This document shows, piece after piece, positions 1,821 through 38,206 of a stretch of 64,000 bases of DNA; position 1 is the first letter of the stretch, and each line of letters opens with the position of its first letter. The DNA is from Eremomyces bilateralis CBS 781.70 (lineage: Eukaryota), in assembly GCA_010015585.1 (NCBI GenBank), contig ML975153.1; one strand, given 5' to 3'. The position numbers were made by a program, and so were the translations under genes. The notes under the pieces were generated by a model, which saw only the letters and a list, made by a program, of their open reading frames with translations, was not told where the DNA came from and did not search any database.

Positions 1821-2601
1821 CTGAAATCATTGGGATTAGCGCATGCCGCCTGAATGTGTGTGAGAGAGAGAGAAAGAAAAGGGAGGAGACTATTCCGCAT
1901 CACGATCCTTGGATTCCCAGAAGGCGGTGCGCTCATTCATGCGAACGGATGAGGCAGCGCAAGGAGTAAGAGGTGTCGATGGAAATGATGGTTGACGCTA
2001 GGTGCGAGGGATTTGGGGAAGAGAATCATTCAGTGGATGATAGCTGTCGACTTTCGAGTAGGTCTTAGCGCTTGCTCTTATAACGGATCCAGAAGTCGCG
2101 TGTTCGTTCATGCGGTGGATCTGCTAGGCCGCATATTCATACGAAAGGAGGGAAGAGGCTCGCCCGCTACTTCGGCTGCCGGTTCCATCCCTAACCGCGT
2201 CCACGCCACAGCCCCTGGGCAGCGTGGATAGGTAGTTCTGGGCTGTTCTGGATGGCGAGCAGCGCACCGGAGGCAGGTCAAGGAATAAGCGAGGCCAGGG
2301 AGGGAAAAGAGAAAGCGCAATGAAAGCAAATCGATTGATCCGGATACTGGGACTCTGTGATTGTCTATTTCCCTTAGGTTGGAGATTGGCGTACATAGGG
2401 TGTTTCCCTTCCATCATTTCGTCGTATCAGAACATCTTTCATGTAAAGAAATCAGCAAATTGAATTTCAGATCTACTCCCAATGTCGTTTAAAAAGCGTG
2501 AAAGATCAACTGAGATTGAGCACCGTAGATCAGAGGCTGCTACGGCCCGCCCCCCAGAGCTTGCTTCGCTTCACCGGATGCCAGTAGTCGGAAGCGATTC
2601 A

Positions 2602-3560
2602 TCAACGTGACGGGGGCGCGAGATTTACCGGCTCTTGGATCTGGAATTCTTTAGTGACCTTAACCCACTCCTCGCCATACTCCTTTACGAGACGCAGCAG
2701 TAGGGAATCTTCCGCAGAAGTGAGGGCTACACGAAGGTTCCTCCGTTTTTGCTCTAGCTCTGGTATGAAATTCAAATCGAAGTCGTCGTCGCTAATGTCC
2801 TCTAGTGTGGAGAACTGACGTTCCCTCGCCACCGGTGAAGCGGCCGATACCGTAGCCAACGCTTCCACGCGGTCAAAGATATCCCGAACCATATCCATGA
2901 GGGCCTCCTGGTTCCCCGATATCTCGGACTGCGTCTGAGCGTTGCTGCGGATCGCTTCCAGCAGCTCCGGTAGGCTCTGAACCAGGGTTTGGTCTTGCGA
3001 AGCATGTGCATGGAGACTGTGGCCGTCCTTCAGTGGGGAATCCGGTGGGGCAGTGATCCTAGGTTCTAGCTCCAGCGAGGGCGAAGCGGGTAGCGAAGGT
3101 GACGGAAGACGGTCGACCAAAGTCAAGGGAGGCGGCGTAGCTTTCTGTTCGACGTATCCGGTTAGCTGAATAGAAAAAAAATGGCGACTCTATCCCCTTA
3201 CCCAGGTGATCAGGGGAGACGCCGGCGTTGGCGACTGCGCCGGAAGACGCCTATGGAAAGACATCTCCAGGCCAGAATACTGTACGACGATATGGTCTCT
3301 AGGTGCGAGGCGGAGTTCCTTGCGAATAAATTCCTCGACTCCGTGCGGATCTGGACAGTAGATGCGGAGGATGTTGCGCCATCGTCTAGCTCTGACACGT
3401 AGACCGTCACATCCTCTTCCTTGTTTGGAAAGCGAGTATTGAGAAGGTCCTGGACCTGTTGCGTGAAAGCTACTTTGACCCTTATACCCGCTTTGCCGGT
3501 CTCTTGACAGATGGATGTGTGACTCGGCGCCAGCCCCTACGTCCTCGCCCCTTCGTCGGC
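2602..3560 (-). pseudogene. Degenerate gene: unknown conserved domain, then an intron, then a Pro-rich linker and a Myb/SANT-like C-terminal motif
   Basis: The exon at ~3200-3500 (TRFPNKEEDV.../ILRIYCPDPHGVEEFIRKELRLAPRDHIVVQYSGLEMSF) ends at GTAAGG. The intron has GCTAAC...CAG. It joins ORF 2602..3126, which ends in LTSAEDSLLLRLVKEYGEEWVKVTKEF (Myb-like helices). A frameshift and a stop lie upstream. Confidence 0.55.
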
Positions 3561-4101
3561 GGGTTATGGTTGATCAGAGGGAATCGAGTGGCCGCCGTTT
3601 CCCCTAAGTGACGACCGCTTCTCAATGGATTCACCGATACGAAAGAGTACCTTGTATCCTGCGTTCATGCGTTCATGGAAGAAGCTCCACCGTCGGTCGA
3701 TGTCCCCTGTGATTGTGGATAGCCAGTCGGCGGGCCACGGCTGTTTAAGTAGAGAGAGAAACGAGTGGCCGTCGGTCCTCGATCGGCGATAGCATGAATG
3801 ACTGACATATTGAGGGAGCCGGAAGCCGTATCTCGGTTCATGCGTTCATGCAGGGTGGAGCGAAACCTGTTTGGGTTTTTGTTGGGACGAGGGGAGATTG
3901 GAAGGATCCGAATTCATGGTGTGGTAGTCGGTGGACGGGCGGGAGGTTTCGATGGATGATGGTTATCGTGAAAGATTTCGGGGATGGATGGGTTACGAAC
4001 AGACGGCGCTATACCTGGTCGGGCGGCGCTAAACTCAAGGAGGGAATTAACCAAAACTTCACGTACAAAGTTAAATATTTACAATAAGCTAGGACAGGTA
4101 T

Positions 4102-4327
4102 TGTCGCACGTGATGTGCTAAAATGGTTGGGAGTGAGGTGCTGTTGTTCCAGCAGCGAAGTTGTTGTATTGTGTGTTGTGTGTAAGTTGTGTGTAAGTTG
4201 TGTGTAAGTTGTGTGTTCTAGCTGAATGCCTGGTTCCCCGGCCCTACAGATATACGAGAGTCACGGCAAGATTATTAATGCAGTTTGTAGCCTTGGACTC
4301 CTAGAGCTCATGCCTTGGCCTGCGACA
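4102..4327. mobile_element. Solo LTR (226 bp)
   Basis: TGTCGCA...TGCGACA inverted termini with a perfect 5-bp TSD GGTAT (4097-4101, 4328-4332). It contains an internal (TTGTGTGTAAG)x3 tandem repeat. Confidence 0.85.
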
Positions 4328-4346
4328 GGTATTCCCCGGATTTCAC

Positions 4347-4797
4347 GTTTACTATGGTTACAGGCAAAAGTATTGTTAGCGCGGCGCTAATTAGGGGTCT
4401 AGCCTAAACCGTTTTGTTCATTCTTCCATTACTAATTAGATATAGATTTCACCATCTATTAGCCTGCTCATTCTCCGGACCCCAATCCTATTGAGACAGT
4501 ATGGAATTGGATGAAGGGCTGGATCCAGGACCACTATGGGGATGCCTGATTATATTATGACCAGCTTCAGGAGGGAATTAACGATGCTTGGGAGGCTATC
4601 AGAGGAATTCGTGTAAGAGTTGTCGAGTTGATGGGCCAGAGATGCCAGGATGTGATAGGCGCAAATGGAGGCTATACACGATAATGAAATCTATATCCAA
4701 TTAGTAATGGAAAAAAGAACAAAAACGGTTTAGGTTGGAAACTCCTGCTTAGCGCCGCGCTAACAATACTTTTGCCTATACAGTAACCATAGTAAAC
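4347..4797 (+). mobile_element. Internally deleted, non-autonomous Tc1/mariner element
   Basis: About 105-bp imperfect TIRs (GTTTACTATGGTTAC...GATATAGATTTCA and its reverse complement). The interior encodes the transposase C-terminus PAHSPDPNPIETVWNWMK...RCQDVIGANGGYTR with an internal stop. Confidence 0.88.
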
Positions 4798-5194
4798 ATC
4801 CAAGCCTCGGCCTGTATGTGGGGCATCCGGGTGCAAGGGCGGGAATAAACTCTACCTCGAACTCGGAGTCGGTCCCTAGCAACTTGTACGTACCAACAAG
4901 CGATGCTAGCTTATGATCTTCATTCGGGTGAAAGACGACTCCGAAAGATGTTTTCGGCTCGGATCTGAGGCGCTGGGTCATGCGTAGCACGAAGCAACAT
5001 AAAGAACGGAGTCACATTTGGCACGTTCTTCCAATTCCTTGATTTAGTGTATAGATCGACAGCACTCATTTCTTTCCCCGCGAAACCTGATTGATACCTC
5101 TCCAAGATAGCTACCATCGAAGTTCGGAAGTAGTCTTCCAACCCCCCAAGAGCCAATTGACCTGCTGCCGTGTCCTGCAAGACATATAACAATC

Positions 5195-7869
5195 ATGGGC
5201 GACGATTCCGATCCTCCCTCGTCATCTCATCCTACTCCACCAGACGTTGACCTGCTCCGCAACAATGCCACCCTCCACCCCTCCGGCTACGAAGAGGTCC
5301 CGTCCAAAGCATCCATCCTGCCGCCCGAATCGCCGTCCGATGTCTCCGTTATCGACATGCCCGATCCACCTGAGGCCGATGCGCCGGATCGGAACCTCAT
5401 CGAGCGAATGGCGCGTTTCCGTTCGACGCCCCTCTCCTTCCTCCGGGAAGTCAGCCTCCACGTTTCTGGTACCGGGTGGCGGAGCTATGACAATATCGTG
5501 GGGCAGCCGGTGTTCTATCCCGGGTTCAGCGAGAAGATGAAGCAGAGCGTATTGTCGAGCCCGATGTTACAGGCGAAGGTGGAGGAGTTGGCGGAGAAGA
5601 GGGTGAGGGTTGAGGAGGGGGAAGGGCGGTGGGGACTCGCTGTAGACGAGGGTCAGAAAAACTATACGGGTAGCACGAAGAGGGATAGGAGAGAAAAGAG
5701 GAAGAAAGACGTTCAGCAGAGTCTGGAGCAGGTGCTCGAGAAGATGACTGAGGACATGATTGCCAAGATGGAGGGCAAGCGGTTCATACGTGGAGCATAC
5801 TACATGGTCACACAGTTGTTGACGCGAGCATATCACCAAGGTAAGCTTTTTCCAATGTGCATGCTCTCTCTAGCTGACATCCAACCCGCGAAGGCATCCA
5901 CGTCTCCTCCGAAGAAATCGTCCGCCTCCGTAAAGTCGCAATCGAAGCTCAGAAAAAGAAACAGTCCATCATCTTCCTCCCCTGCCATCGTTCTCATGTC
6001 GACTACGTCTCATTGGCAATCATCTGCTACCGTCTCGGCCTTACTCTACCCGTGGTCGTGGCGGGCGACAACCTCAATTTCCCTCTCGTCGGTCCGTTCC
6101 TGCAAAGTGCTGCAGCGATGTGGATCCGACGGTCGTTTGGGGACGACCAGCTCTACACGACGCTCGTGCAGGCATACATGGACACTCTGCTTCAGCAAGG
6201 ATTCAACTTCGAGTGCTTCGTCGAAGGCACGCGATCGCGAACCGGAAAACTGCTCCAGCCCAAGTTCGGGATCTTGGGCTTCCTTCTCGACTCCGTACTT
6301 TCGGGCCGGGTTAAAGATGCCATCATCTGCCCCGTCAGCACACAGTATGACAAGGTCATCGAAGTAAACAGCTATGTCTCCGAGCTGCTGGGGCAGCCGA
6401 AGCAAAAAGAGAACCTGATGGACTTCCTCTCCGCGTCATCCATTCTGAGCCTCAGACTGGGGCGCGTCGACGTCCGTTTCCACGAGCCCTGGAGCCTTCG
6501 ATCCTTCATCGACGACCAGATGGCGAGTTATACCAAGATGCCGCCGCAAATGCCCACTGAGCCGAATGGGAAGGACACGACCCGGCTCCGGTTGCTTCGC
6601 ACGCTCGGTTTTAAGGTCCTAGCGGAAATCAACGAAGTGTCGGTCGTCATGCCGACTGCATTGATCGGCACCATTCTCCTGACATTACGGGGACGCGGCG
6701 TTGGAAAGAGCGAGCTAGTCAGGAGGGTGGATTGGCTGTGCGCACGCGTCAAGTCCCGAGGTGGGAGAGTTGCGCATTTTGCTGGACTCCCAACGGAGAC
6801 GGTCGTCGAGCGCGGGCTGGAAGTTCTGGGACCGGAGTTGGTCGGGGTCGTCTATGGCCTTGTGGAGCCGACGTTCTATGCGGTGGATCGGTTCCAGCTT
6901 TCATTCTATCGTAACATGACCATCCATCTGTTCGTCTCGGAGGCCATCGTGTCGGCTAGTCTATATGGCCGAGTAAAACTCGGCGGTGGTCTCGAGCACC
7001 AGCGCATGCCGTTTGAGGAGCTTCGTGATCAAGTTCTGTTCCTCTCGCAGCTCTTCCGCGGGGAGTTCATCTTCCCGACCGACGGCCTTGAAGCGAACCT
7101 ATCCAAAACGCTCCAAGGGCTCGAGCAGGATAAGGTCATCCACATCGTCAGGAACCAGCAAGATCCGTCGCAGATTGAGTTCGTGGAACTGAGCGAAGAA
7201 GAGCGGGACCAGGGACGCGAGAACTACGACTTCTACTGCTTCATGATTTGGCCATTTATCGAAGCCAGCTGGCTCGGTGCGGTATCTCTCATGGCGCTGA
7301 CGCCTCCATCAGGGCAAGGCGAGGATATGTGGCTGGACATGAAGAAGGTGCAGGATATGGCTCAACTGGTAAGTGAATATTGAAAAACTCCCTCAGCTCT
7401 TCGGCCGATAGCTAACGCGGGCACCCAGCTCGGTAAAACCCTCTACCATCAAGGCGACCTCTCCTACTTCGAAGCCGTCAACAAAGAAACCCTCAAAAAC
7501 GCCTACCAGCGCTTCGAAGAAGAAGGCATCCTCCTCGTCGCCAAATCCAAAGACGCCCGCATCCCCACCACCGTCCGCCTTGCCCCTGACTGGGTCCCGC
7601 CACGCGCCCCCTCCAGCAACCACCTCCTCCCCTCCGGCCGCCTCTGGGCGTTTGCCGAGCACATTAGCCATAGCCGACGTGAAGGGAAGAATCGGCGGGA
7701 CGGGAACACGGTGCGAACGCGGGTGCTGGGGCTGGTGGAGCTGGTGGCGGAGAGCTTGTGGGAGCATGCGCGGCCGGCGGCGAGTCCGGAGAGTAAGCCC
7801 GGGGCGTATGAGAAGGTGAAGCAGCGGCGGCCGAGAAGGGCGATTGGGGAGGGGAAGGCGAGGTTGTAG
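5195..7869 (+). CDS. Glycerol-3-phosphate/dihydroxyacetone-phosphate acyltransferase (PlsB/GNPAT-like), probably peroxisomal
   Basis: join(5195..5840,5894..7368,7429..7869). HRSHVD (HX4D), AMWIRR and FVEGTRSRTGK acyltransferase motifs. Ends in GKARL* (PTS1). Confidence 0.9.
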
Positions 7870-7986
7870 GATGGGCGGCGGCTGGGGCGGGTTGTTCGGG
7901 TAGATACATTTAGATGATATCCCTGGATGAGCGTTCGGGCATGGGCATTGATATAATGGAGTCCGCAATGAATATATTCAGGCTAC

Positions 7987-8264
7987 TGTTATGGTCCCGG
8001 GCCCGTGGCCTGGGCCCTTGAGTATGGCTGACGCCACAGGGATGTGGCTAGTGGATGGCATGGAGGATTATCAAGGATATAGTCATATGGGAGCTATGTG
8101 TTAGGACGGAGCTGTGTTAAGGAGCTGTGTTGAACTGTGTTAGTATAGTAGAGAGAAGAGTTTATATCTCGCACACAGGCGCTGGGAGATTTCTTCCTTC
8201 TCTCTCTTCTGTTTAGATTAATGGAACTTGGTAATCGCAGATCTTGCGCATCCAGACCGTGTCA
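7987..8264 (+). mobile_element. Solo LTR, family shared with 13325-13585
   Basis: TGTTATGG...CCGTGTCA termini. Flanks GCTAC/GTTAC are a TSD with one mismatch. It matches the reverse complement of 13325-13585 along its length. Confidence 0.85.
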
Positions 8265-9900
8265 GTTACGGCCCATAATCACAGCAAAGAGCTAGATGCA
8301 AGCTTGGTTTGAATGCGAGGACAAGACTTAAACACCAAGGACTACGGAGTAGTAGGTTTCAAATTTCTTCGCATCCTGGCTCTTATCCCTAACAGAATCG
8401 CCAACCCAATGCCAAAAATAGCAGTTGGACAGCCATGGATGGATGCGACTCGGATGAAAATGAGGTATTATGTAACATACCTAGCTAATTAATCCCTACG
8501 AAGTAACATTTTACTATTAGGACTCCGCATGTCGTATGGATTAGGACACCAGAAGTGCGAACACCCCTGCAGCAGTACCGGGACACCGGACGAACTGCTT
8601 CCAGTGAACACAAGCCAACAACCTAAATCTATCGTCTGCCTTCTACGACATTGACCAACACCAGATCAAATCTAAGCGAACCACGCTTGGGATTGCACAA
8701 GAAAGATGAGGAAAAGAGAAAGCGATCCAAATCTGCAGTCCTGGTCGAAGGGAATTACCAACACCCTGCTCGGTGACAGAAGAAAAGCGCTCGAAGGATC
8801 GGTTTACTGTTTATCCCATGTCCAAATTATTTTTGGAACGTCAAGCTACTATGTATGCTCAGTGCTCAACAATGCTCAGGGATGTCGGGTGACCGGAAGG
8901 CGGAATGCCATTGTCTTATATCTTTTCTTCTATTGGCATTGTGATTTTGTTCTGCATCGAGATGGGCGGCATTGTCGGCATCACGATCTGATATGCCGAG
9001 TCTATTGGTGGCGTCGGCCTCGTATTTCCGACTAATCATCTCCGATTCTGGTCTCTCTCGCAGTCCCTGCCTCTGGTGTGCCTGCTGCCCCGTGCCCCTA
9101 TCCCCCACATGTACGCCACTGCATAGTCGACGTTCACCTCATATCCTCGTTGTCCTCATGGTATCGCTCAACAGTTGAATGTCGTCATTCGACAACTATC
9201 GCTTTACTATCCATTTCAATTGCGGTTCGTCATTTTCATCTTTAGATGTCTTTGGAAGTTTAAAGTGGTCTACGGGAGATCGTCAACACCAGCATCTGCT
9301 GTTACCCGATAAGGCCGATATCTTTCACAGATCGCTCAAGATCTGGCGCGGAATGCGACTACAAGGAAACACACAGCATCGAAAGGTGAGGATCATGAGG
9401 TGCATAGGAATCCATACGCAAGAGGCTTGGATCTTCCTGCTAATCCGACAGCCAAGGGGGGTGGCTGCGACTAATAATCACAGTCAGCGTTGCAATCTCG
9501 TAATTATGGAGTCCATCGTGACGACGGCCCGGAGTGGGCGTCAATCCGATCTCCCCCAGGCCCACACAACGGTGGGCGAACACTCCCTCCCTCCTCGCGC
9601 TCCCCTCCATGCCAGGGCGAGGCAATACGAAGTTGATAGTAAAATTGCACCTCTTTTCTGCAACATTGTCTCTCCTCATCGGTCCGCGTGACGTCGCTGC
9701 TTAAGAGCGGTAGCTTCCCCTGTTTCTTGTCGGTCATAGGTGATGCTCTAAGCGGAAGTCAATCGTTTTCGAACTCTTATAGAATCATACATCCAGCTCC
9801 GAACCAGCAGTCACTCGTTTTCTATTTCTAGTCAAGTCATCTATTTCGCACTATATGGTAGAAATTACTGTTTTATTCTTAATTTCTACTCGTCTTTAAG

Positions 9901-12756
9901 ATGCTCCGCGACGCGGCTACGCTTCTTGCGCTTGCATTATGCATCCTCACCTATCGAACAACCCTAGTGGCGGCAATTAGTACAACATCCGTCGCTCCAA
10001 TTTCGAATGAGCGGGCTGGCTGGGTGATAACCACGGACAGTGCCATGCCAGGCAATGAGGCGACGCTTGTGCTGGACAATAACGAGGGGACATTCTGGCA
10101 TTCCGCGTGGTTTCCAGATGCCCCTTTGCCCCACTGGCTCAACATTGATATGGGCACCCAATACCTCATCAGCGGGTTCTCCTACACTCCACGTCAAGAC
10201 GAGGAGACCAATGGCAACATTGGGATGCATTCGATTGAGTACAGTGTTGACGGCAACAACTGGGCAACCGCGGCACAAGGCACGTGGGCCAACGATAATA
10301 CCGTGAAGACATCGTTATTCACCCCTGTTATTGCTCGTTGGATCCGCTTGAACGCTCTTACAGAGGCATCTAACACTGGCCTACAATTCTCGAGTGCGGC
10401 CGAAATCAACATCCTAAGAAACCCCCATTCATCGCTTCCACGGACGAACTGGGTCGTCTCTGCGGATAGTGAGCAAATTGGGGAACAGTCTTGGGCTGCT
10501 ACTTATGCTATCGACGAGAGCCCAACTACCTTCTGGCACACTGCATACTACGGGGGCGCTGATCCTCTGCCACACTATTTCACCATCGACCAGGGTGCTG
10601 CTACCACCGTTGGCGGTCTCAGCTATCTCCCTCGGCCACCTTCAAGCGGGCCAAATGGGCGCATTGGCGAGTACACAGTGCAAAGAAGCGATGATGGCAA
10701 TAGTTGGATTGACGTGACCAGTGGTACCTGGCCAGACACTGAATTCAAGAAGCTTGTCGAATGGCAACCGATAACCACACGATACTGGCGTCTTGTGGCT
10801 AGATCAGAGGCTGGAAATCGTGGTGAATGGACCAGCGCTTCCGAGATCAATTTGCTTGATGGAGCAAATCAATTGGCGAACTTCAGGGTCACGGTTGACA
10901 GCGAGGAAACCGCTCTCTTCAACAACAGTGCGGTTCGTGCTCTGGATACCGACATCAGCACCTATTGGCACACCGAGTGGTCAAGCGCCAACCCTCCTGG
11001 CTTTCCTCACTTCATCACCATCGACATGCAGACCAATCTACCGGTCAAAGCCCTGCAATACACCCCCCGACAAGACGGTGGCGTGAACGGCAACATCGGT
11101 CAGCATACGATCGATGTGAGTACGGACGGCAACTCTTGGACCACGGTGGCTACCGGTGCTTTCGCCGACAATGCCCAGGCCAAACTGGTCAACTTCCAAG
11201 AAACGTTGTGCCGGTATGTCCGGCTCACTGCCACTAGCGAGGCCGGCAATCGTGGGCCATGGAGCAGTGCAGCGGACATTGCTATTTCTTACGACGCAAG
11301 TTACATCGCACCCGCACCACAAACCAGAGGCCAATGGGGCCTGACTGTCAATTTCCCGCTTGTTCCCGTCGCGGTCGGTCTGGTGTACGATACTGGTGAG
11401 GTTTTGGCTTGGTCTTCTTGGAATCCATCGGGCTTTGGCGGTAGCCCGGGTGGTCAAACCGTCACTGCTACATACAATCCCTCCACCAGTCTTGTGTCAA
11501 AAGCTCTGATCACCGACACCCATCATGACATGTTCTGCCCTGGTATCTCCCTCGACTTCAACGGTCGGATGATCATCACTGGTGGCAATGATGCTCCGCG
11601 AACCAGTATCTACAACCCACCAGGCCATGGTTGGATTTCTGGACCGGACATGCAGATCGCTCGTGGCTATCAGTCCTCGGCGACCCTGTCCAACGGATGG
11701 GTTTTCACCATAGGTGGTTCGTGGTCTGGCGGTATCTTCCAGAAGAATGGTGAATATTACGATCCATCCGCCAACACCTGGAACATGCTGAACGATGCCG
11801 ATGTAACACCCATGCTCACGAATGATGCCGGCGGACTGTACCGCTCCGACAACCACGCCTGGCTGTTCGGCTGGAAGAATCAGGCGGTTTTCCACGCCGG
11901 GCCAAGCACGGCGATGAACTGGTACACAACCACCGGCAGTGGCGGAGTTACCGGTGCCGGCAACCGTCTGGATAGCGGAGATGCCATGTGCGGCATGGCC
12001 GTCATGTACGATGCCGTTGCCGGCAAAATCCTCACTATGGGTGGGTCTCGGGACTATGAGAACGCTCCGGCGGTGTCCAACACCTATGTCGTTACCATCG
12101 ACAACGTCGGGACCCAAGCGCAAACCGAGCGGGTTGCCGACATGAACTCCAAGCGCATCTTCGCTAACGCGGTGGGGTTGCCCAATGGCCAAGTGTTTGT
12201 CGTCGGCGGCCAGGACTATGGTTCGGTATTCAACGACGACTCGTCAATCATGTATCCAGAACTGTACACGCCGTCAAGCCAGACATGGACCGTCATGGCC
12301 CCCATGGCCGTGCCGCGCAACTACCATAGTGTTGCGATCCTCATGCCCGATGCCTCCGTCATGGTCGGCGGCGGTGGCCTTTGCGACGGTTGCAGCATGA
12401 ACCACTACGATGGGCAGCTGTTCAACCCTCCTTACCTATTCACGTCCTCCGGCGCCAAAGCCACCCGCCCCGTCATCGACTCTATTTCAGCGGACAACGT
12501 CGCTCTCGGTGGCTCTCTGACCGTCACCATGAACAGCGCCGTCACGACTTTCTCCATCGTCCGTTTGGGTTCCGCCACCCACACGGTCAACACCGATCAG
12601 CGGCGGATTCCCCTCACTCCCAGTTCGGATGGCGGCAATACTTACAGCATCACCATTCCCAGTGACAGTGGTGTTGCTCTTCCTGGCTACTGGATGTTAT
12701 TCGCCATGGACGCAGCCGGTGTTCCCAGCATTTCCAAGACGATCAAGATCTTCTAA
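9901..12756 (+). CDS. Copper radical oxidase AA5_2 (galactose oxidase-like) with three tandem F5/8 type C (CBM32) modules
   Basis: Signal peptide; three repeats of DS...A.D....T.WH...P.PH...ID...Y.PR....NG.IG...SA.EI. Catalytic residues MFCPG (Cys), RGYQS (Tyr), GGSW (Trp), RNYHS (Tyr-His) and ATHTVN (His) are all present. Intronless. Confidence 0.95.
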   Translation: MLRDAATLLALALCILTYRTTLVAAISTTSVAPISNERAGWVITTDSAMPGNEATLVLDNNEGTFWHSAWFPDAPLPHWLNIDMGTQYLISGFSYTPRQDEETNGNIGMHSIEYSVDGNNWATAAQGTWANDNTVKTSLFTPVIARWIRLNALTEASNTGLQFSSAAEINILRNPHSSLPRTNWVVSADSEQIGEQSWAATYAIDESPTTFWHTAYYGGADPLPHYFTIDQGAATTVGGLSYLPRPPSSGPNGRIGEYTVQRSDDGNSWIDVTSGTWPDTEFKKLVEWQPITTRYWRLVARSEAGNRGEWTSASEINLLDGANQLANFRVTVDSEETALFNNSAVRALDTDISTYWHTEWSSANPPGFPHFITIDMQTNLPVKALQYTPRQDGGVNGNIGQHTIDVSTDGNSWTTVATGAFADNAQAKLVNFQETLCRYVRLTATSEAGNRGPWSSAADIAISYDASYIAPAPQTRGQWGLTVNFPLVPVAVGLVYDTGEVLAWSSWNPSGFGGSPGGQTVTATYNPSTSLVSKALITDTHHDMFCPGISLDFNGRMIITGGNDAPRTSIYNPPGHGWISGPDMQIARGYQSSATLSNGWVFTIGGSWSGGIFQKNGEYYDPSANTWNMLNDADVTPMLTNDAGGLYRSDNHAWLFGWKNQAVFHAGPSTAMNWYTTTGSGGVTGAGNRLDSGDAMCGMAVMYDAVAGKILTMGGSRDYENAPAVSNTYVVTIDNVGTQAQTERVADMNSKRIFANAVGLPNGQVFVVGGQDYGSVFNDDSSIMYPELYTPSSQTWTVMAPMAVPRNYHSVAILMPDASVMVGGGGLCDGCSMNHYDGQLFNPPYLFTSSGAKATRPVIDSISADNVALGGSLTVTMNSAVTTFSIVRLGSATHTVNTDQRRIPLTPSSDGGNTYSITIPSDSGVALPGYWMLFAMDAAGVPSISKTIKIF

Positions 12757-13324
12757 GTTTATCGGGTTTGTTTATCCACGACTTCAACTGCTCCTTGGTT
12801 CTCGTTTTCCTAATTACAACTTGTCTCAGCGCTTTCCTGCTAGATGTTGGCAAAGTCATTCGTGGTTATACCCTTGGTGGCCGAGCAGGGTTACAGTGCT
12901 CAACCCCCCAAAGGGTCTGTCATGACTAGTTTTGTATAAGGAAAGTTGAGCACTGGAGTGACTCAAATTCTGATCCGCCACCAAGGGAATTTTGATAGCT
13001 GGTGAACATTGTTGGCTTGGGCATCAACAGGGTCTCGGGCCCATTGAGGCGGAACTATCTCTATCACGTCGAGACCCGGATCATACTTGTCTAATAATAT
13101 GATTAGAAATCTAGGGAACGGGTAGAACATCAGCAGATAGGAACCAGTATATGGGGGTATATTAGGGGAGGAAGTGTTTAGTTTGTCATCTTGTTTTCTC
13201 CCCCCATCTCTTACGCAAGGTCTACCTACACATCTTGGATAGTTAGACAGAGTAATGAAATGAAATCCTGAAGTTAAAAAGATTTAGTTCTTAATATTCT
13301 CTCGAGTTGTATAATCGTTGCAAC

Positions 13325-31434: not shown

Positions 31435-31624
31435 TGTTATGCGTTGAAACCCTTGGTTGGCTAAGTCTTAGAGCCTAAGCCTGATTAGGCCAATGGTTGA
31501 ACCAGAGTCCAACCCTCTTCAATGTAAACAAGAAGGCTTCCCCTTCTTGTTCTCTTCTTTAGCTTAATCTAGAATACCTTTGGCTACGTGTATGTTGTGT
31601 GCATCCAGCTACCGTGCCGTAACA
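31435..31624. mobile_element. Probable solo LTR ~200 bp upstream of the tRNA gene
   Basis: TGTTATG...CGTAACA inverted termini and LTR-like size. The TSD is only partial (AGTA/AGTG). Confidence 0.45.
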
Positions 31625-33424: not shown

Positions 33425-34002
33425 CGTGCTAGAGGCATTCGGATGCGAGGATATGGTTGAGATTTTGTAGTAAAGGTGAACGCAGGACGAAAGTTTAGAA
33501 ACAAAGGACAATGGTGTAGTTACGGGATAGAGAAGTACTGGGGCAGCTTTAATCTCGAAGTGTGATATCACCAAGATCATGACCCCACCATCCCGAAATC
33601 GTGGGGGAGTCGGGGTAATCCCTGTGAGTTAGTTGACAGGTGGTGACGGATATGTAACCAGTTATCAAGGGTCAGCGCCACGGGTTATGGCGCGCCAAGG
33701 CCGCCTGATAACCCAGCCTCTCGCGCCAGCGACCGCAGCGCTGCCCCCTTGATATACCACTTATCTGAAGGCCTTCGCGGTGGCTGGGTTATTGGCGAAG
33801 ACATGGCGCAGCGTTAAGCCCTTTGCAGTAAAGCGTCGGTGGAAACGATCGCTATATACGGTATAGCTGTGACTTGGTGGCGCTTAGCTCAGGCATTTCT
33901 TCCCCCTCCCCTCCTTTCGCGATAGAACGAGCCATTCGCGATCATACAGATGAATAGTTTACTCGAATTATCCCCTACCTACCGCCATTAGACCGTGAAG
34001 AA

Positions 34003-36334
34003 ATGCCTCCTAGCTCGCAGCTCTCTATAGAGCATGCGATCGAGCTGAACAGCCGTTTAAATGCCGCGACACAACGAGCCCTTGCAACGCCAGATGGCAG
34101 AGTAACGAGTACGAGGAGAATATATGAGCCACGACAGCAAGAGTTTATTGTGAGAAGCGCTTTCGTACGGGAAATCCAACGAAGGAGGAGGCTAATTCGG
34201 TTAGGCGTGGTGCCAGAAGAACCAGTGCAGCGACGGTATACTCGTTACCAGTGCCAAGATTACCCTCTTTCTAGAAGAAGAGGTTATCGGTCGCATCGCA
34301 AAGCCGACCCGGCCAGGCCGGAGGCTGAAGCAGCCTTGTACGGACACGGATGGCAATCCGATCGTGCAAACGCTCGGAGCTCGATCGATTGAAACGTACG
34401 TTTCTGCGATTATGGAGCTGTGGAAAGTGCAGCACAGCCTTGCTCAGAACCAAAATGTCCCCGTCCGGTCGTACGCGTTGAAGCAGCTGCTGCAAAAGCG
34501 TAAGATGGCCGAGGCGGCCCGCAAGCGAGAAGAGTACGTTGATCGCGGTGCTGGCACACTGCTCGACGGCTATTCGGAAGAAGAGTTCGTACGATGTATA
34601 CGAGGCTGCTGGCAGCCCGAGGCGTCTGAAACGTCCGTCCTGGCAGGCCAGAAAAGAAAGCGAGAGAGACCGACATCGCAGGCCTACAGCGGATGGCTTC
34701 GTACGGCAGTCGATCTCCTCTTCTCGCATAACATGTTTCTGCGTGGGGAGACTGTACGAAACGGAGAACTGCCTGATCTCTTCGCCGTCCCGCTGCAGAA
34801 TGAAGGAGCAACAGATTGCCGTGTTCTCTGTATGATTGTAGACAACGGGAAGACAAACGCCTTTGGAAAGCTAGAGTACGGTGTTACCGTACGACACAAG
34901 GAGCATTGGAAATGTCTAGTCTCTCAGTTGGCGTTCTACCTCTTCTTCCGCTGGGACCTTGAGAGAGAACCGCCGCCGACCTTCAAGCAGCGCTCGGATT
35001 GGTATCGTACGAAGATTTTGAAAGGTGGCCAGAATACCCATCCTCTCTCGTACGCTACTCAGCTGCAGTGGGTCAATGGGATCTTTGACCGCTGTGAGGT
35101 CTCGTCATACAAGAAGACGCATGCCGGACGAAAGCAAGGTGCTCAGCATGCGGAGATGCTTGGTGTCAGCGAATCTCAGATTCAGAGAGCGGGACGATGG
35201 AATTCGGATTCCATGTCGAATGCATACCTCAGCCATATTCCCCGAAAGTTCGTACGAGCAGCCGCTGGCTTCCCTCCCAGCGGCCGAGGAGACTACTTCA
35301 TTCCGCGAGCACAGATCCTGCCTCCTGAGACGCTCGTACGGAAGATCTGGCCATGGGTGGACGAGTGGATCGAACGGTTCCAACAGAATGAGAACACGGT
35401 GCGTGATGATCACCAGTTAGACGAACAGGATGAGGGAGATCGGAATGACCTTGCTGGAAAGGCCTTCCTCCGGCTACTTGATTATCTTCGTACGGTGCTT
35501 CTTCAGGACTCCGTCCTAATCCGCGATGAGTTTCCACGCCACCCTCTCTTCCAGCATCCGATCTTCTCTGATCCGGAGTACCTTGACTTTATGCGGAGGA
35601 TGAGGCAAACTCTTGCTGCTGAAGTGGTTCCACCGCAAGATGTACTCGTACGACAAGCTGTTCCGATAATTGCAGATCGATTGAGTGTGATGGAGACCAA
35701 TCTTGGACAGAGATTACAAGAGATGTTCGACTCTCTTCGTACGGAGCAAGGCCGTCAGCGTACGGTTCTAGATGGTGTATTCAGTGGCAGAACACCTATT
35801 TACCTTAATGTGGGACACTCATCCTTACTCCAGGATCCATTTCCAGCGGTTCGGACGGCCGCTCCCGGCACGAGAATACCTTCAACGCCGGTAATAGAAA
35901 CTCCGGTTTCTATCGCACGCTCCACTCCGACTACCTCTTCGGCTCCGCCGCTATTGGCTATTAGCCCTTCTACCGTACGACCGCTACCTGATCGACCGAT
36001 AAAAGAGAATGGAGAGCCAATCTATACTATGTCTCGTACGGTAGAAACTGTTGGTCAACTCTGGCGAGAGTGGTTTGAAGGATTTGCACCTAATCCTTCC
36101 GTACAAGCGTTAGAGTTAAGGTATGGCGCCTTATGGCGACAGAAAGATTCAGAGAAGACGTGGTATAGTCGTAGAAAAGCTATTATTGATTATATCCGTG
36201 TAGTATCTGAGGCGAAGAGAATACCAGCTCTGCTTGCGGTAACACGGTTGGAAGAGGTACGTACGAGATCAAAGTGGAGTCTACATCATCTCTACAAGGA
36301 GATTGCTCAAAAAAAGAGTAATCTACTTGGATAA
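34003..36334 (+). CDS. Crypton tyrosine recombinase (Ndc10 domain-2-like YR plus C-terminal GCR1_C DNA-binding domain), 758 aa
   Basis: join(34003..34149,34205..36334); the intron GTGAGA...GCTAAT...TAG joins the frames. Catalytic set R (LRGE), K (GKTN), HxxR (THAGRK), W (GRW) and Y (NAYL) is intact. GCR1_C signature MSRTVETVGQLWREWFEG...PSVQALELRYGALWR...YSRRKAII. Confidence 0.9.
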
Positions 36335-36403
36335 GCTCTAAGATTGATAGAGGAGGTGCTTGTACGATAATAAATTAATTTGGAATCAAGCAGGAGGAAG
36401 TAA

Positions 36404-36597
36404 AATGAGGAGGATCAAGAGGATCAAGAAGAGAAGGAAGGGGAGGAGGAGGAGGAAGAGGAGGAGGAGAAGGAAGAGGAGAAGGAGAAGGAAGAGGAGA
36501 AGGAGAAGGAAGAGGAGAAGGAGAAGAAGGAGGAGGAGGAGGAGGAGGAGGAGGAGAAGGAGGAGGAGAAGAAGAAGAAGAAGAAGGAGAAAGACGA
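36404..36597 (+). repeat. Polypurine (GAG/GAA/AAG)n tract between the two convergent element genes
   Basis: About 190 bp almost entirely A/G, with 15-bp AGGAAGAGGAGAAGG-type periodicity. Confidence 0.9.
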
Positions 36598-36905
36598 GAA
36601 GCCTCGTACGAAGCGCAAAGTTAGAAAGATTCAACTTTCAGGCCCTGTAGAGCGAGCGAAAAGGCGTCGGAATTAAACAAAGGAGTTTTTAGACGTATCA
36701 TTATATTCCAATTATAGCGGATATCGTACGAAACTTTCATTAATTAGCATATACCTATAAAAGATCTGTTTAGTTTCACCGTACGGTTACTTGTCTTGAA
36801 CTCCACGTAGAGGAACAGATTCTGTCTAAGTACTATCAACAGCCCTGATAGCTAGGATGCTGCCAGTGCTAACATAGAAAGAGACCTTACGAAATTGAAC
36901 TTACA

Positions 36906-36947
36906 TTAATCACCTAGAAGGGTTTCACTTGAATCCGACCGTACGGA

Positions 36948-36978
<31 letters not shown>

Positions 36979-37463
36979 GCATCCTCGTCGTTATTCTCCT
37001 CTTCAGACGATTCTTCGTCCGAAGAATTATCCCAAGAGCAGCGCGTACCGTGGTCACGCCACTTACAATTACCGCAGCAATCACTAAAGTGAGCGATCGC
37101 ACGGCGGCACTCGGGGAAGGGCGTCAGGCCGCGTCGTACGCATTCAGTGCAAGCTGTCGGCGCCGCTGTCCCCCGGGATTGGATAAGGATGGCGTTGATG
37201 TATGACGGGCGGTGGCTTAAGATCTGCCCAGCCGATATCCGGTTGCGTACGAACCGGACGTGGACGCCGGGACCGGTAGCAAGAAGCTCCCGAGGCTAGG
37301 GGGAGTGGCAGAGAGCTACAAAGATGGGGTTACCCCTAACCTGCAGCGTACCAATTCCCGGAGTAGGAGGACCTACCGCCGCACCGTAGGTACTATTAAA
37401 CAAAACAAGAGCCCTAGGAAGATTAATACCCGTACGGAGTGGAAATAGATCAAATGCTTACAT
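36906..37463 (-). CDS. DUF3716-like Cys-rich protein with an acidic tail (169 codons, one in-frame TAG)
   Basis: The ATG is split by a 48-nt intron (AT|GTAAGC...TAG|G, 37414-37461). Translation: MALVLFNSTYG...CHSP*PRELL...RPSYINAILIQSRGTAAPTACTECVRRGLTPFPECRRAIAHFSDCCGNCKWRDHGTRCSWD, then poly-Asp/Glu. The TAG is at 37296-37298. Not in the ORF track. Confidence 0.75.
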
Positions 37464-38206
37464 CTTCGAACGTTGGAGAGCACTGAAGGAAGAAAGAGAG
37501 AGAGAAAGAAAGGAGGAATCGAGTAGGATAGAAGCATAGACTTATAACGACACCTTCCTTAGTCAAATGAATCACTCCTTCCTTACGAATTCCTATTTTA
37601 GAAAGGGAAATTTCCACCTACGTACGAATTTCTATCTCAGAAGGCCCATCCTATTGTACTGTACCTTGGGTAGTCGGGATTTCAATATGACAAGGTTGAC
37701 TTTAGTTACTTGATACTTATAAGTCGATATGACTAACAGCTTACCGTACCTACTGTTGTTGTTATTGCTGTTGTTGTTGGTTAGTATAGGCAATGAGAGT
37801 ACCATTTCCGCGATGGTTGTTATGTGTGAAGAACTAGGGTCTTGGCATTTTTGCCTAATAACCCAGGCCATGACGCGCCAAAATTCCCCTTATGATATGT
37901 CCCAGTTAATGGATGCACACGCTCTGTGATACTTCGCATTGCGTTGTAATTCGGTTTTATTATCGTACGGTAAGCACCAGACTTTGTCTCAAATAGATCG
38001 AGGTAGAAGATGTGGCTAAACGGTGTGTATGAGGGAGCAATTATTATATCAGATGGCTAAATCAGCTACCACGAACAATGGAGGTCAAGCAACGCAAACA
38101 TAAACGCCACATCGCTTGACATGGAACCTGTCTCAACGAGCCCCATTCCAACCCAATTCAAACATCCACCGGGTATAATCATAATCAGTTATGTCTAAAA
38201 CGGGTA

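Follow-up and report, generated by a model that had tools for sequence, protein, structure and literature searches.

The window, by which we mean the whole stretch of 64,000 nucleotides analysed here, contains a CryptonF-type element, and a second gene within that element encodes a bona fide protein of a compact DUF3716 subfamily found in transposons of both classes. The same element bears an array of CGTACG palindromes. We give a probability of roughly 0.5 to the reading that the subfamily represents a portable, transposon-borne zinc-cluster DNA-binding protein that, together with a cognate site array, would act on chromatin in a VANC-like manner.

A DUF3716 gene with a split start codon

The first-pass annotation had described a minus-strand, DUF3716-like Cys-rich gene with a start codon split by an intron, an in-frame TAG, and a poly-acidic tail, and all four features held up. 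The stop-to-stop ORF (36906..37295, minus strand) encodes 129 aa without a Met, and Pfam matched its residues 35-87 to DUF3716 (PF12511; E 2.7e-15; 56.5 bits, against a gathering cut-off of 22 bits) over profile positions 1-57 of 59. We identified 93 relatives at E ≤ 1e-3, and 1125 cluster representatives passed the same threshold among 1.84 billion proteins. The Pfam score and the 93 relatives together rule out chance for this ORF.

The complete gene (36906-37463, minus strand) has 169 codons. The AT of its start codon (37463-37462) is followed by a 48-nt intron (37414..37461, reading GTAAGC..CTAG from 37461 to 37414), and exon 2 (36906..37413, supported by the ORF and Pfam) opens with the G at 37413 and closes with the stop codon TAA at 36908-36906, giving a protein that starts M-A-L-V-L-F-N; transcription starts further upstream. 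A CGTACG site lies inside the intron at 37431-37436. Among 80 related loci, the N-terminal motif A-L-V/I-L-Y-N was located in 52, none of which has a direct ATG. AG|G stands immediately 5' of the Ala codon in 43 of the 52, and 37 of those 43 also have AT|GT 38-99 nt upstream (18 with GTAAGT; most introns are 44-62 nt). A colinear read-through (M, TAA, ...) was rejected in favour of the intron model, which is the version conserved in relatives. As a consequence of the start-codon intron, gene callers miss or mis-start genes of this subfamily.

The Cys-rich core (37035..37193, minus strand) is supported by Pfam, invariant columns, and AlphaFold2, which gave pLDDT >90 at residues 11-90 of the 129-aa ORF. 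Numbered on that ORF, the six conserved Cys are C49, C52, C63, C74, C77, and C86, and the window protein keeps every column that is invariant among 64 relatives (Y32, L37, C49, F60, C63, F70, N76, C77, K78, and W79). The core is followed by a tail of Ser, Asp, and Glu (36933..37025, minus strand); relatives have acidic tails too, ending in a short hydrophobic motif. The in-frame TAG occupies codon 40 (37296..37298, minus strand) and aligns with the Gln of 'HSPQ', which is conserved in relatives.

The surrounding Crypton element

The element spans about 4.15 kb on the plus strand (33703..37866, approximate ends). A 14-nt direct repeat, GCCTGATAACCCAG at 33703-33716 and GCCTAATAACCCAG at 37853-37866, coincides with breaks in the DNA-run contigs at 33690-33701 and 37847-37867, and DNA depth is 2-4x across 33607-36315 vs 1x in the flanks. 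Terminal inverted repeats were not found; the ends of the window Crypton show the direct repeat only. The end motif occurs once more, in inverted orientation (..CCAATAACCCAGCC..), at 33784..33797 (minus strand); judged by its sequence, this third copy is a possible recombinase-binding arm. The end motif is not shared with the five related loci in which DUF3716 is also linked to a Crypton recombinase (L005, L013, L015, L027, and L045).

The tyrosine-recombinase gene consists of exon 1 (34003..34149, plus strand; 49 codons from the ATG) and exon 2 (34205..36337, plus strand, stop codon included). An RNA-like contig of run X1 joins 34149 to 34205, skipping 55 nt with GT..AG borders, and the spliced CDS is open over 759 codons. 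That X1 is RNA is a guess, although splicing is seen in its contigs; the contigs are strandless, and rare forms are dropped from them. Over exon 2 they show 0 differences from the genome at a depth of 73-79. The recombinase gene carries no disruption, and it is both spliced and expressed. In the ORF at 34205-36334, Pfam identified NDC10_II (E 7.3e-70) and GCR1_C (E 2.6e-22); the window element thus combines, in one protein, an NDC10_II-type recombinase core with a C-terminal GCR1_C, and it is, by DNA depth, a repeated unit that lacks terminal inverted repeats, as in CryptonF. The contigs showed no empty site and no circular form.

The DUF3716 gene lies inside the element ends and is convergent to the recombinase gene. 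Between the two, the contigs are cut at a (GAG/GAA)n low-complexity tract (36379..36618). Runs X4 and X5 contribute almost nothing over the window, X4 having a single record, confined to this tract. By depth, the host genome has one copy of the DUF3716 segment but 2-4 of the recombinase part. The TpA/ApT index was 1.01 in the element vs 0.41-0.54 in host genes, and (CpA+TpG)/(ApC+GpT) was 0.67 in the DUF3716 gene; CGTACG itself contributes TA, AC, and GT dinucleotides to these RIP indices, and we therefore drew no conclusion about RIP from them.

Transposon carriers of the subfamily

We surveyed carriers in the 80 related metagenome loci, all of which were chosen for holding DUF3716. Many are near-duplicates (L020/21/22, L002/10, L005/13/15), so that independent families are fewer than loci. 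A Crypton recombinase is linked to DUF3716 in five of the 80, representing two element families besides the window: in L005, L013, and L015 the two genes are convergent, as in the window, and in L027 and L045 they are in tandem. These recombinases are 31-40% identical to that of the window. Elsewhere, DUF3716 lies beside or within hAT elements (12 loci), RVT_2 retroelements (5), OrsD/DEAD helicase ORFs (4), a gypsy-type element (1), and an IS3EU-like element (1; L001, with rva_4 next to DUF3716). Across these other carriers the DUF3716 proteins show 40-64% identity and belong to the same subfamily.

In two hAT carriers, inverted repeats enclose both the transposase and the DUF3716 gene (17/17 nt in L020, 15/17 nt in L011). 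The right flank of the L020-type element in L021 differs from that in L020 and L022; the ends of the L020 and L011 elements showed no obvious target-site duplication. In an RVT_2 carrier, DUF3716 falls within a repeating unit of 7,160 bp, as calculated by arithmetic on coordinates. A tree in which all hAT-linked DUF3716 proteins form one clade was rejected (p-AU 6.6e-62).

The CGTACG palindrome array

The window has 34 CGTACG sites vs 9.0 ± 2.8 expected, and 26 of them fall within 3.8 kb (34164..37969). Twenty-five lie inside the element limits (33703..37866), on both sides of the DUF3716 gene, and the last (37964) lies ~100 bp past the inferred right end. T is preferred before the hexamer and A or G after it, giving (T)CGTACG(A).

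The same motif emerged from the related loci: every carrier, and the DUF3716 gene within it, is dense in the palindrome, at about 7 sites per kb. In an unbiased hexamer scan, the top-ranked word in 48 of 80 loci was CGTACG, either exact or offset by one base; a decayed clade had TGTACA or TGTATG as top hexamers instead. In L023, L035, and L036, TCGTCCG is a candidate variant of the motif. TGTACA and TCGTCCGA are point-mutant versions of the palindrome TCGTACGA. Inside runs of sites we counted 850 sites in 122.9 kb (6.9/kb) and outside them 115 in 193.7 kb (0.59/kb); clean long loci had 0.00-0.29 sites per kb outside runs. Solo DUF3716 cassettes are motif-dense too, with 12 sites in 1.27 kb in L053 and 8 sites in 1 kb in L007. 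Sites within ORFs are distributed over the three reading frames as 97:74:77, and a recurring peptide was accordingly rejected as the source of the motif. Site positions are partly shared between recombinases that are only ~40% identical.

Spacing is even, with a median of 143 bp and a CV of 0.58; 1000 simulated runs gave a CV of 0.98, with a minimum of 0.87. Only 1.8% of inter-site gaps exceed 400 bp, and gaps <40 bp make up 5.4% vs 22% simulated. Among the titles and abstract openings listed from the literature we found no link of CGTACG to fungal transposons and no prior description of DUF3716 combined with a CGTACG array; a match in the Blastomyces literature concerned only a BsiWI optical map.

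Predicted fold and proposed mechanism

All six rows returned by Foldseek were Zn2Cys6 DNA-binding domains, and VIA-align returned only two rows from 48,161 chains, both of them also Zn2Cys6 DNA-binding domains; the scores of neither search were significant. The matched structures include HAP1 (1hwt), Pho7 (6o19), and Cep3 (6gys_B). The ESM Atlas gave one match at 0.81, under its useful range, and the rows of a PDB profile search (Pickpocket 26, E 0.016; dystrobrevin, E 5.1) were weak and irrelevant.

Zn2Cys6 domains of the Gal4 type have the spacing C-x2-C-x6-C-x5-12-C-x2-C-x6-8-C and recognise half-sites that contain CG, in many cases as dimers on a palindrome. The Cys of DUF3716 are spaced x2, x10, x10, x2, x8 in the same C-x2-C..C..C-x2-C..C order; the window protein departs from the Gal4-type spacing, and Pfam gave no Zn_clus match to it at E ≤ 1.

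In the reading that we prefer, the DUF3716 core would be a zinc-cluster DNA-binding module that reads the TCGTACGA palindrome. Gene and array would form a portable kit, with the protein coating its own element at about one site per nucleosome, and the acidic tail would then work on chromatin, by activation or anti-silencing, as VANC does on VANDAL elements. The protein would act in trans, so that sister copies with sites but without the gene would still be served. The link between array and gene is one of guilt by association, since the loci were chosen for DUF3716 and the controls are internal only.

A further-reaching proposal, which we rate as rather unlikely, is that the gene plus TCGTACGA about once per nucleosome may be a self-marking kit that any class of Pezizomycotina transposon could acquire. 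The zinc-cluster protein would coat all copies of its carrier and thereby shield them from repeat-directed defence. The defence evaded could be cytosine methylation, heterochromatin, or homology sensing of the RIP type; the shortest repeats that RIP senses are near 400 bp, a length that few gaps between sites exceed. Arrays would then be selected even within coding sequence, and gene-less copies would free-ride on the protein.

Alternative explanations

The protein may bind the array with another outcome, either as a self-repressor or copy-number control, or by tethering or protecting DNA intermediates (Crypton circles, excised hAT DNA, retroelement cDNA). This explanation rests on the same motif-gene association data as the chromatin reading, and a role on DNA intermediates would account for use by both transposon classes. 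Autoregulation is suggested by a CGTACG conserved within the intron that splits this gene's start codon: of 50 relatives, 21 have an exact site within the 40 nt leading up to the acceptor, and 10 others have a form decayed by C>T. However, sites are spread evenly over whole element bodies at nucleosome-scale spacing, unlike known tethering sites, which are clustered, and acidic tails are found more typically in activators or in proteins that bind histones. We consider these other outcomes rather unlikely.

The DUF3716 gene might instead be a passenger, acquired through repeated capture or as a small independent cassette landing near transposons, with the array read by another factor such as a host protein. 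Solo DUF3716 cassettes adjoin host-like genes in L007, L053, and L061. Transposon type changes often on the DUF3716 protein tree (24 changes vs a minimum of 9). Motif-rich Cryptons without the gene also exist, namely a second copy in L015 and, by depth, sister copies in the host genome; we counted these against the chromatin reading as well. On the other side, DUF3716 is the only gene common to all motif-rich carriers, and it is itself motif-dense, intron included. It sits within the hAT inverted repeats and the RVT_2 repeating unit, and its ORF is intact in nearly all non-decayed loci. Adjacent ORFs of other transposons on the same contigs have few sites or none: the Tc1-like ORF of L005 has none, nor does that of L021 (positions taken from L022, assumed to hold the same element), and the pogo ORF in L038 has one. 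A passenger role is, in our estimate, distinctly unlikely.

A narrower question is whether the window copy itself still functions, with its TAG read through or recoded to Trp by A-to-I mRNA editing in the sexual stage. The window copy keeps every core residue that is invariant or nearly so, and a precedent comes from PSC58 of Fusarium graminearum, described as a DUF3716 protein with a premature stop restored by editing (PMC10776026). However, an edited TGG would restore the ancestral residue only if that residue were Trp, and relatives have Gln at this codon. Only one RNA-like contig spans the gene (36601-37749 in run X1, at depth 14.5); of unspecified stage, it keeps the genomic TAG with 0 differences and is genome-colinear, hence unspliced. 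The window copy is on a long branch of the protein tree (0.9 vs a median of 0.11), and comparable C>T stops turn up at scattered points in relatives that have clearly decayed. The host is nearest to Dothideomycetes, in which, to our knowledge, A-to-I mRNA editing of such stops has not been reported. Function of this copy is improbable, and the gene is probably a recently disabled copy; its stop codon and its low, unspliced RNA-like cover were counted against the chromatin reading.

That the protein is a Crypton-dedicated recombinase partner, serving directionality or excision in a two-gene recombination system, is highly improbable: the convergent layout recurs in one further family and a tandem one in another, and a single clade of all six Crypton-linked proteins was not rejected (p-AU 0.325), but the same subfamily occurs in hAT, retroelement, helicase-ORF, and IS3EU-like contexts that all lack a tyrosine recombinase, Crypton copies without the gene exist, and, despite at least 1 kb of flank downstream in 52 loci and upstream in 36, only 5 of the 80 showed the linkage.

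The first-pass annotation was right to place the gene inside the element and to expect recurrent linkage to Crypton recombinase genes. Its proposal of a Crypton-dedicated factor, including a recombination directionality factor, was not supported by the range of carriers, and is further opposed by the single-copy DUF3716 segment alongside a 2-4x recombinase and by the premature TAG. Its other guess, an anti-silencer or activator, fits the CGTACG array at the level of sequence.

If the chromatin reading is true, it would provide the first function for DUF3716, a widespread fungal domain, and would mean that Cryptons, hATs, and retroelements share one accessory module and that a DNA-level code is written through transposon coding sequence at nucleosome spacing. 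A protein that reads this code would be a fungal counterpart of plant VANC anti-silencing, portable across transposon classes, and would bear directly on transposon survival in the face of fungal genome defences, RIP and heterochromatin among them. CGTACG is also a practical marker with which to delimit elements and to spot copies that need a helper in trans.

Comparison with known systems

The DUF3716 subfamily resembles Zn2Cys6 domains in the order of its six conserved Cys and in its restriction to fungi, and those domains were the only fold matches returned. It differs in its longer inter-Cys loops (10, 10, and 8 residues), in the lack of a Zn_clus match and of significant fold scores, and in an extra conserved N-terminal beta/helix part.

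Direct DNA binding has a possible precedent in Neurospora crassa, where, according to part of the published account, recombinant NCU05718 binds double-stranded DNA at TTAGGG repeats (PMC4650311). The presence of DUF3716 in NCU05718 is taken from one sentence in PMC10776026, which calls PSC58 its ortholog. Binding to TTAGGG and not CGTACG was counted against the chromatin reading. As far as these sources describe them, NCU05718 and PSC58 are host genes, whereas the window gene is transposon-borne; the PSC58 stop is edited back, whereas the window stop replaces Gln and nothing shows editing.

CryptonF elements, reportedly described by Goodwin et al. in 2003 and by Kojima and Jurka in 2011, encode an NDC10_II-type tyrosine recombinase with a C-terminal GCR1_C in a gene that contains an intron; they lack terminal inverted repeats and occur in few copies per genome. 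The window element shares the recombinase core, GCR1_C, the intron, the lack of terminal inverted repeats, and the low copy number. CryptonF elements are generally regarded as single-gene, whereas the window element and two other families add DUF3716 and a dense CGTACG array.

REP9 of Zymoseptoria tritici is, in the relevant portion of its description, an IS3EU-type DNA transposon with two DUF3716 genes, REP9-1 and REP9-2 (PMC8232023). As there, extra DUF3716 genes adjoin an integrase-core transposase in a fungal DNA transposon, and L001 shows the same pairing (rva_4). The DUF3716 passages of that paper give the domain as of unknown function and mention neither a motif array nor a wider spread among superfamilies.

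The VANC proteins of Arabidopsis VANDAL elements, which are Mutator-like, have been described as anti-silencing proteins (Hosaka et al. 2017, PMC5735166). The protein families are unrelated and the hosts belong to different kingdoms; homology is unlikely, as Pfam gives DUF3716 only. VANC motifs are tandem repeats in non-coding DNA, whereas the sites here are single palindromes, evenly placed in coding and non-coding DNA and in all frames. VANC is limited to one transposon family, whereas the DUF3716 gene occurs in six or more types of element, spanning both transposon classes. Motif binding and its effect have been shown for VANC, and for the DUF3716 subfamily we infer them; VANC acts in trans on motif-bearing copies, as the DUF3716 protein may do here. 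VANC anti-silencing proteins of VANDAL elements were reportedly also treated by Sasaki et al. in 2023. In both systems, an accessory protein separate from the transposase is encoded within the transposon (here inside Crypton ends or hAT inverted repeats) and is paired with short motifs accumulated in the same element.

A DUF3716 gene with a split start codon

A minus-strand open frame of 129 codons without Met lies at 36906..37295 and matches the Pfam profile DUF3716 (PF12511; E = 2.7e-15, 56.5 bits, cut-off 22), which confirms the hidden gene proposed in the first-pass annotation. The poly-acidic tail and in-frame TAG described there are also present, as a Ser/Asp/Glu run C-terminal of the domain and a stop at 37298-37296. 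Homology with relatives continues upstream of this TAG. Read colinearly, the ATG at 37463-37461 runs straight into a TAA. In the model adopted, the ATG is split by a 48-nt minus-strand intron (AT/GTAAGC...CTAG/G, 37461-37414); the spliced product starts M-A-L-V-L-F-N, spans 169 codons and stops at TAA 36908-36906. The single internal TAG of the spliced frame is codon 40; it aligns with the Gln of H-S-P-Q, conserved in relatives, and thus looks like a CAG>TAG transition. In X1, a run judged to be RNA-like, whose contigs are strandless and lack rare forms, the sole contig over the gene (36601-37749; 0 differences, depth 14.5) shows no splicing and retains the TAG; it could be read-through out of the convergent recombinase gene.

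The intron that splits the start codon, also predicted in the first-pass annotation, recurs among relatives. A metagenome scan yielded 379 confirmed relatives, and we kept the best 80 loci (L001-L080) for analysis; the N-terminal motif A-L-V/I-L-Y-N was locatable in 52 of these. AG/G stands immediately 5′ of the Ala codon in 43 of the 52 loci, and 37 of those 43 have AT/GT 38-99 nt upstream (GTAAGT in 18); in the nine of the 52 that lack AG/G there, the acceptor context is decayed, by G>A or otherwise. None of the 52 has a plain ATG. Intron length is mostly 44-62 nt, and the acceptor is preceded by branch-site-like CTAAC or GCTGAC words. Of 50 loci, 21 have an exact CGTACG within 40 nt of the 3′ end of this intron and 10 more have a decayed site there; the window intron also contains one (37431).

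With the 129-aa ORF as query, 93 of 107 candidate proteins matched at E ≤ 1e-3, with identity up to 57-65%; named sources include Histoplasma, Blastomyces, Usnea and Botrytis, and many matches lie on short metagenome contigs. In a profile search, cluster representatives numbered 1125 at E ≤ 1e-3, falling to 400 at 1e-10 and to 127 at 1e-30; almost all are 100-270 aa long. AlphaFold2 (64 sequences) predicted residues 11-90 with pLDDT >90 and a disordered tail. The six conserved Cys are spaced x2, x10, x10, x2 and x8.

The Crypton element of the window

The plus-strand recombinase ORF (34205-36334) matches NDC10_II (E = 7.3e-70) and GCR1_C (E = 2.6e-22). An X1 contig joins the splice 34149 to 34205 (GT..AG, 55 nt), giving a CDS of 759 codons open from the ATG at 34003, at an X1 depth of 73-79. 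A 14-nt direct repeat marks the element ends (about 33703-33716 and 37853-37866), and an inverted third copy lies near 33784-33797. The consensus of the three (33702-33717, 33783-33799 and 37853-37868 when its full length is counted) is GCC-(T/A)(G/A)-ATAACCCAG-(C/G)C, and a GGCGCGCC-like word lies near each; these copies are candidate recombinase-binding or crossover sites. The end motif is absent from the related Cryptons of L005, L013, L015, L027 and L045. Contigs of two DNA runs break at the repeats, where depth steps from 1x to 2-4x; since repeat, contig breaks and depth rise coincide, we place the element at ~4.15 kb, with the DUF3716 gene ~400 bp inward of its right end. None of the sequencing runs yielded an empty site.

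Across the recombinase part, and again across 37520-38121, depth is 2-4x; across 36617-37519 it is 1x (249 and 152 vs 234 and 167 in the flanks). The genome's other Crypton copies, at ≥80% likeness, therefore lack the DUF3716 segment. This segment is flanked by a 240-bp (GAG/GAA)n tract between the convergent genes (36379-36618) and a CT-rich tract just upstream of the DUF3716 start (37480-37520), with contig breaks at each. The window gene belongs to the Crypton, whose recombinase gene is still active. The DUF3716 gene is interrupted by a stop, evolves fast and has no second copy in the genome, so it is probably a recently lost helper. Its branch length in the protein tree is 0.9, against a median of 0.11; the host Srs2 helicase shares 63-65% identity with Dothideomycetes Srs2. 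Elsewhere, between Iml1-like and Memo-like genes, ~120 bp at 31503-31624 form a very high-copy short repeat that is not a tRNA (in run X2, contig depth ~23,500 compared with ~234 where DNA is single-copy; 5,700 in X1).

DUF3716 genes travel with several transposon superfamilies

The small DUF3716 gene, intron included, resides within transposons that belong to several superfamilies. Linkage to Crypton recombinase genes, which the first-pass annotation had expected to recur, does so: TBLASTN of the spliced window recombinase found it in 5 of the 80 loci (best of 379), at least 1 kb of flank being available downstream in 52 and upstream in 36. In L005, L013 and L015 the recombinase is convergent and 365-670 bp downstream, a layout like that of the window; in L027 and L045 it lies upstream on the same strand. 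L015 holds two head-to-tail Crypton copies, both dense in CGTACG: the one at 5518-9059 has the DUF3716 gene, and the other (2404-5220) has 23 CGTACG sites and no DUF3716 match. Array-bearing copies without the gene thus exist.

A Pfam scan covered 154 of the 185 neighbouring ORFs of at least 150 aa, the other 31 being overlapping ORFs of L054 and L061. It identified the hAT dimerisation domain at 12 loci, RVT_2 at five (ORFs of 1557-1736 aa in four), OrsD and DEAD helicase ORFs at four, gypsy-type pol in L056, an rva_4 integrase core in L001, pogo DDE_1 in L038, and host-like genes in L007, L053 and L061. In two hAT families, terminal inverted repeats enclose both transposase and DUF3716 gene: L020 (9540-9556 and 12859-12875; 17/17 nt) and L011 (108-124 and 3380-3396). 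The right flank of the L020-type element in L021 differs from that in L020 and L022. A single RVT_2 element appears at different offsets in L002 and L010, and from their coordinates we calculate a repeating unit of 7,160 bp, with the DUF3716 gene inside it.

This implied unit may be repeating or circularly assembled; its ORF reaches 1,736 aa (a contig end cuts the L002 copy), its RVT_2 match is weak (E about 1e-9), and gag, protease and integrase domains were not found at E ≤ 1e-5. Giant ORFs with OrsD zinc-finger-like and DEAD/Helicase_C domains, saturated with CGTACG, adjoin DUF3716 genes in L027 (2971-7359), L054 (1-4065), L006 (3100-6051) and L019 (1457-3853); they may represent an undescribed helicase-type mobile element or kin of telomere-linked helicases. 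In L053, two inverted, overlapping DUF3716 matches (3086-3733 plus, 3681-4028 minus; together 3086-4028) form a solo cassette without any transposase, in a 1.27-kb island with 12 CGTACG sites adjoining a host-like NOPCHAP1 gene.

In a protein tree of 81 rows and 149 columns (quick search; many rows near-identical), transposon type clusters at the tips yet requires at least 24 changes, against a minimum of 9. A single clade of the 12 hAT-linked rows was rejected (p-AU = 6.6e-62), and one of the six Crypton-linked rows was not (p-AU = 0.325). Given the near-identical rows, independent families number ~8 for hAT, ~4 for RVT_2 and ~3 for Crypton, the window included. The core ORF is intact in 30 of 52 loci examined, including nearly all non-decayed loci. 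Abundant C>T-type stops (TGA/TAG) characterize a clade of ~20 rows, mostly from one metagenome assembly series. Decayed copies are L039, L050, L052, L055, L058, L060, L064 and L066-L080; their C>T changes strike motif CpGs, in the manner of RIP or of deamination of methyl-C.

Carriers bear an array of CGTACG palindromes

Carriers and gene bear an array of TCGTACGA sites that is evenly spaced, frame-independent and partly position-conserved. The window contains 34 CGTACG (9.0 ± 2.8 expected; 0/100 shuffles reach 34), 26 of them within 34164-37969. Related Cryptons have 25 sites in 4.1 kb (L005), 25 and 23 in the two L015 copies, and 15 in 2.4 kb (L013); solo cassettes are dense too (L053, 12 in 1.27 kb; L007, 8 in 1 kb). 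An unbiased scan (order-2 background, both strands) returned CGTACG or a one-base shift as top hexamer in 48 of 80 loci, and the decayed clade shows TGTACA, TGTATG and CATACA in its place, all C>T products of CGTACG. Over 960 sites, T precedes the hexamer in 72% and A follows in 65%, so the full word is TCGTACGA. L023, L035 and L036 are enriched in a one-base variant, T-CGTCCG-(A/T), with 6-9 sites each and few CGTACG; L035 and L036 form a separate long-branched protein clade. Protein and motif possibly change together in these three loci, at small counts.

The motif-rich stretch is coextensive with the transposon and DUF3716 gene. In site runs containing the DUF3716 gene, 850 sites were counted over 122.9 kb (6.9 per kb), vs 115 in 193.7 kb (0.59 per kb) outside, where some DNA is transposon body since runs were split by a 600-bp gap rule; outside density is 0.00-0.29 per kb in clean long loci and 0.13 in the window. 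L020 has 17 sites in 10039-12724 vs 2 in the remaining 14 kb, and L005 has 25 in 9517-13162 vs 1 elsewhere. The Tc1-like ORF adjoining the L005 element has no CGTACG site; we infer the same for that of L021 from site positions in L022, where this L021 element also occurs. A single site lies in the pogo ORF of L038.

Across intact, long ORFs for unrelated proteins, site counts by frame (0, 1, 2) are 97:74:77, the site encoding R-T, [SPAT]-Y-x or x-V-R; the signal therefore lies in DNA (or RNA), not protein. Recombinases 31-40% identical share sites at common codon positions (residues 215, 277, 331, 398, 426, 660 and ~733, for example). After near-duplicate loci were removed, 41 runs gave 683 gaps; their median is 143 bp and spacing is more even than chance (CV 0.58, against 0.98 in simulation, where the lowest of 1000 values was 0.87). 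Of all gaps, 5.4% are <40 bp (22% simulated), 6.9% are >300 bp (14% simulated) and 1.8% are >400 bp.

Proposed function and comparison with known systems

We propose that the Cys-rich core would act as a zinc-cluster reader of the TCGTACGA palindrome, probably as a dimer. The DUF3716 protein would load in trans on each array-bearing copy, at about one site per nucleosome, and its acidic tail might alter chromatin to the element's advantage. We put the probability that the protein binds its own array at roughly one half; the direction of any effect on chromatin is more tentative. According to the available text of PMC10776026, the DUF3716 protein PSC58 is the ortholog of NCU05718, which, in the available text of PMC4650311, has no known DNA-binding domain and in recombinant form directly binds double-stranded TTAGGG repeats.

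The main texts searched contain no account of the CGTACG array or of DUF3716 spread across superfamilies. The one published DUF3716-transposon link in this literature is REP9 of Zymoseptoria, as described in the available text of PMC8232023, and L001, with its rva_4 integrase core, recalls this element. Judging from the available text of PMC5735166, the closest functional analogue of the proposed DUF3716 role is VANC of the Arabidopsis VANDAL elements.
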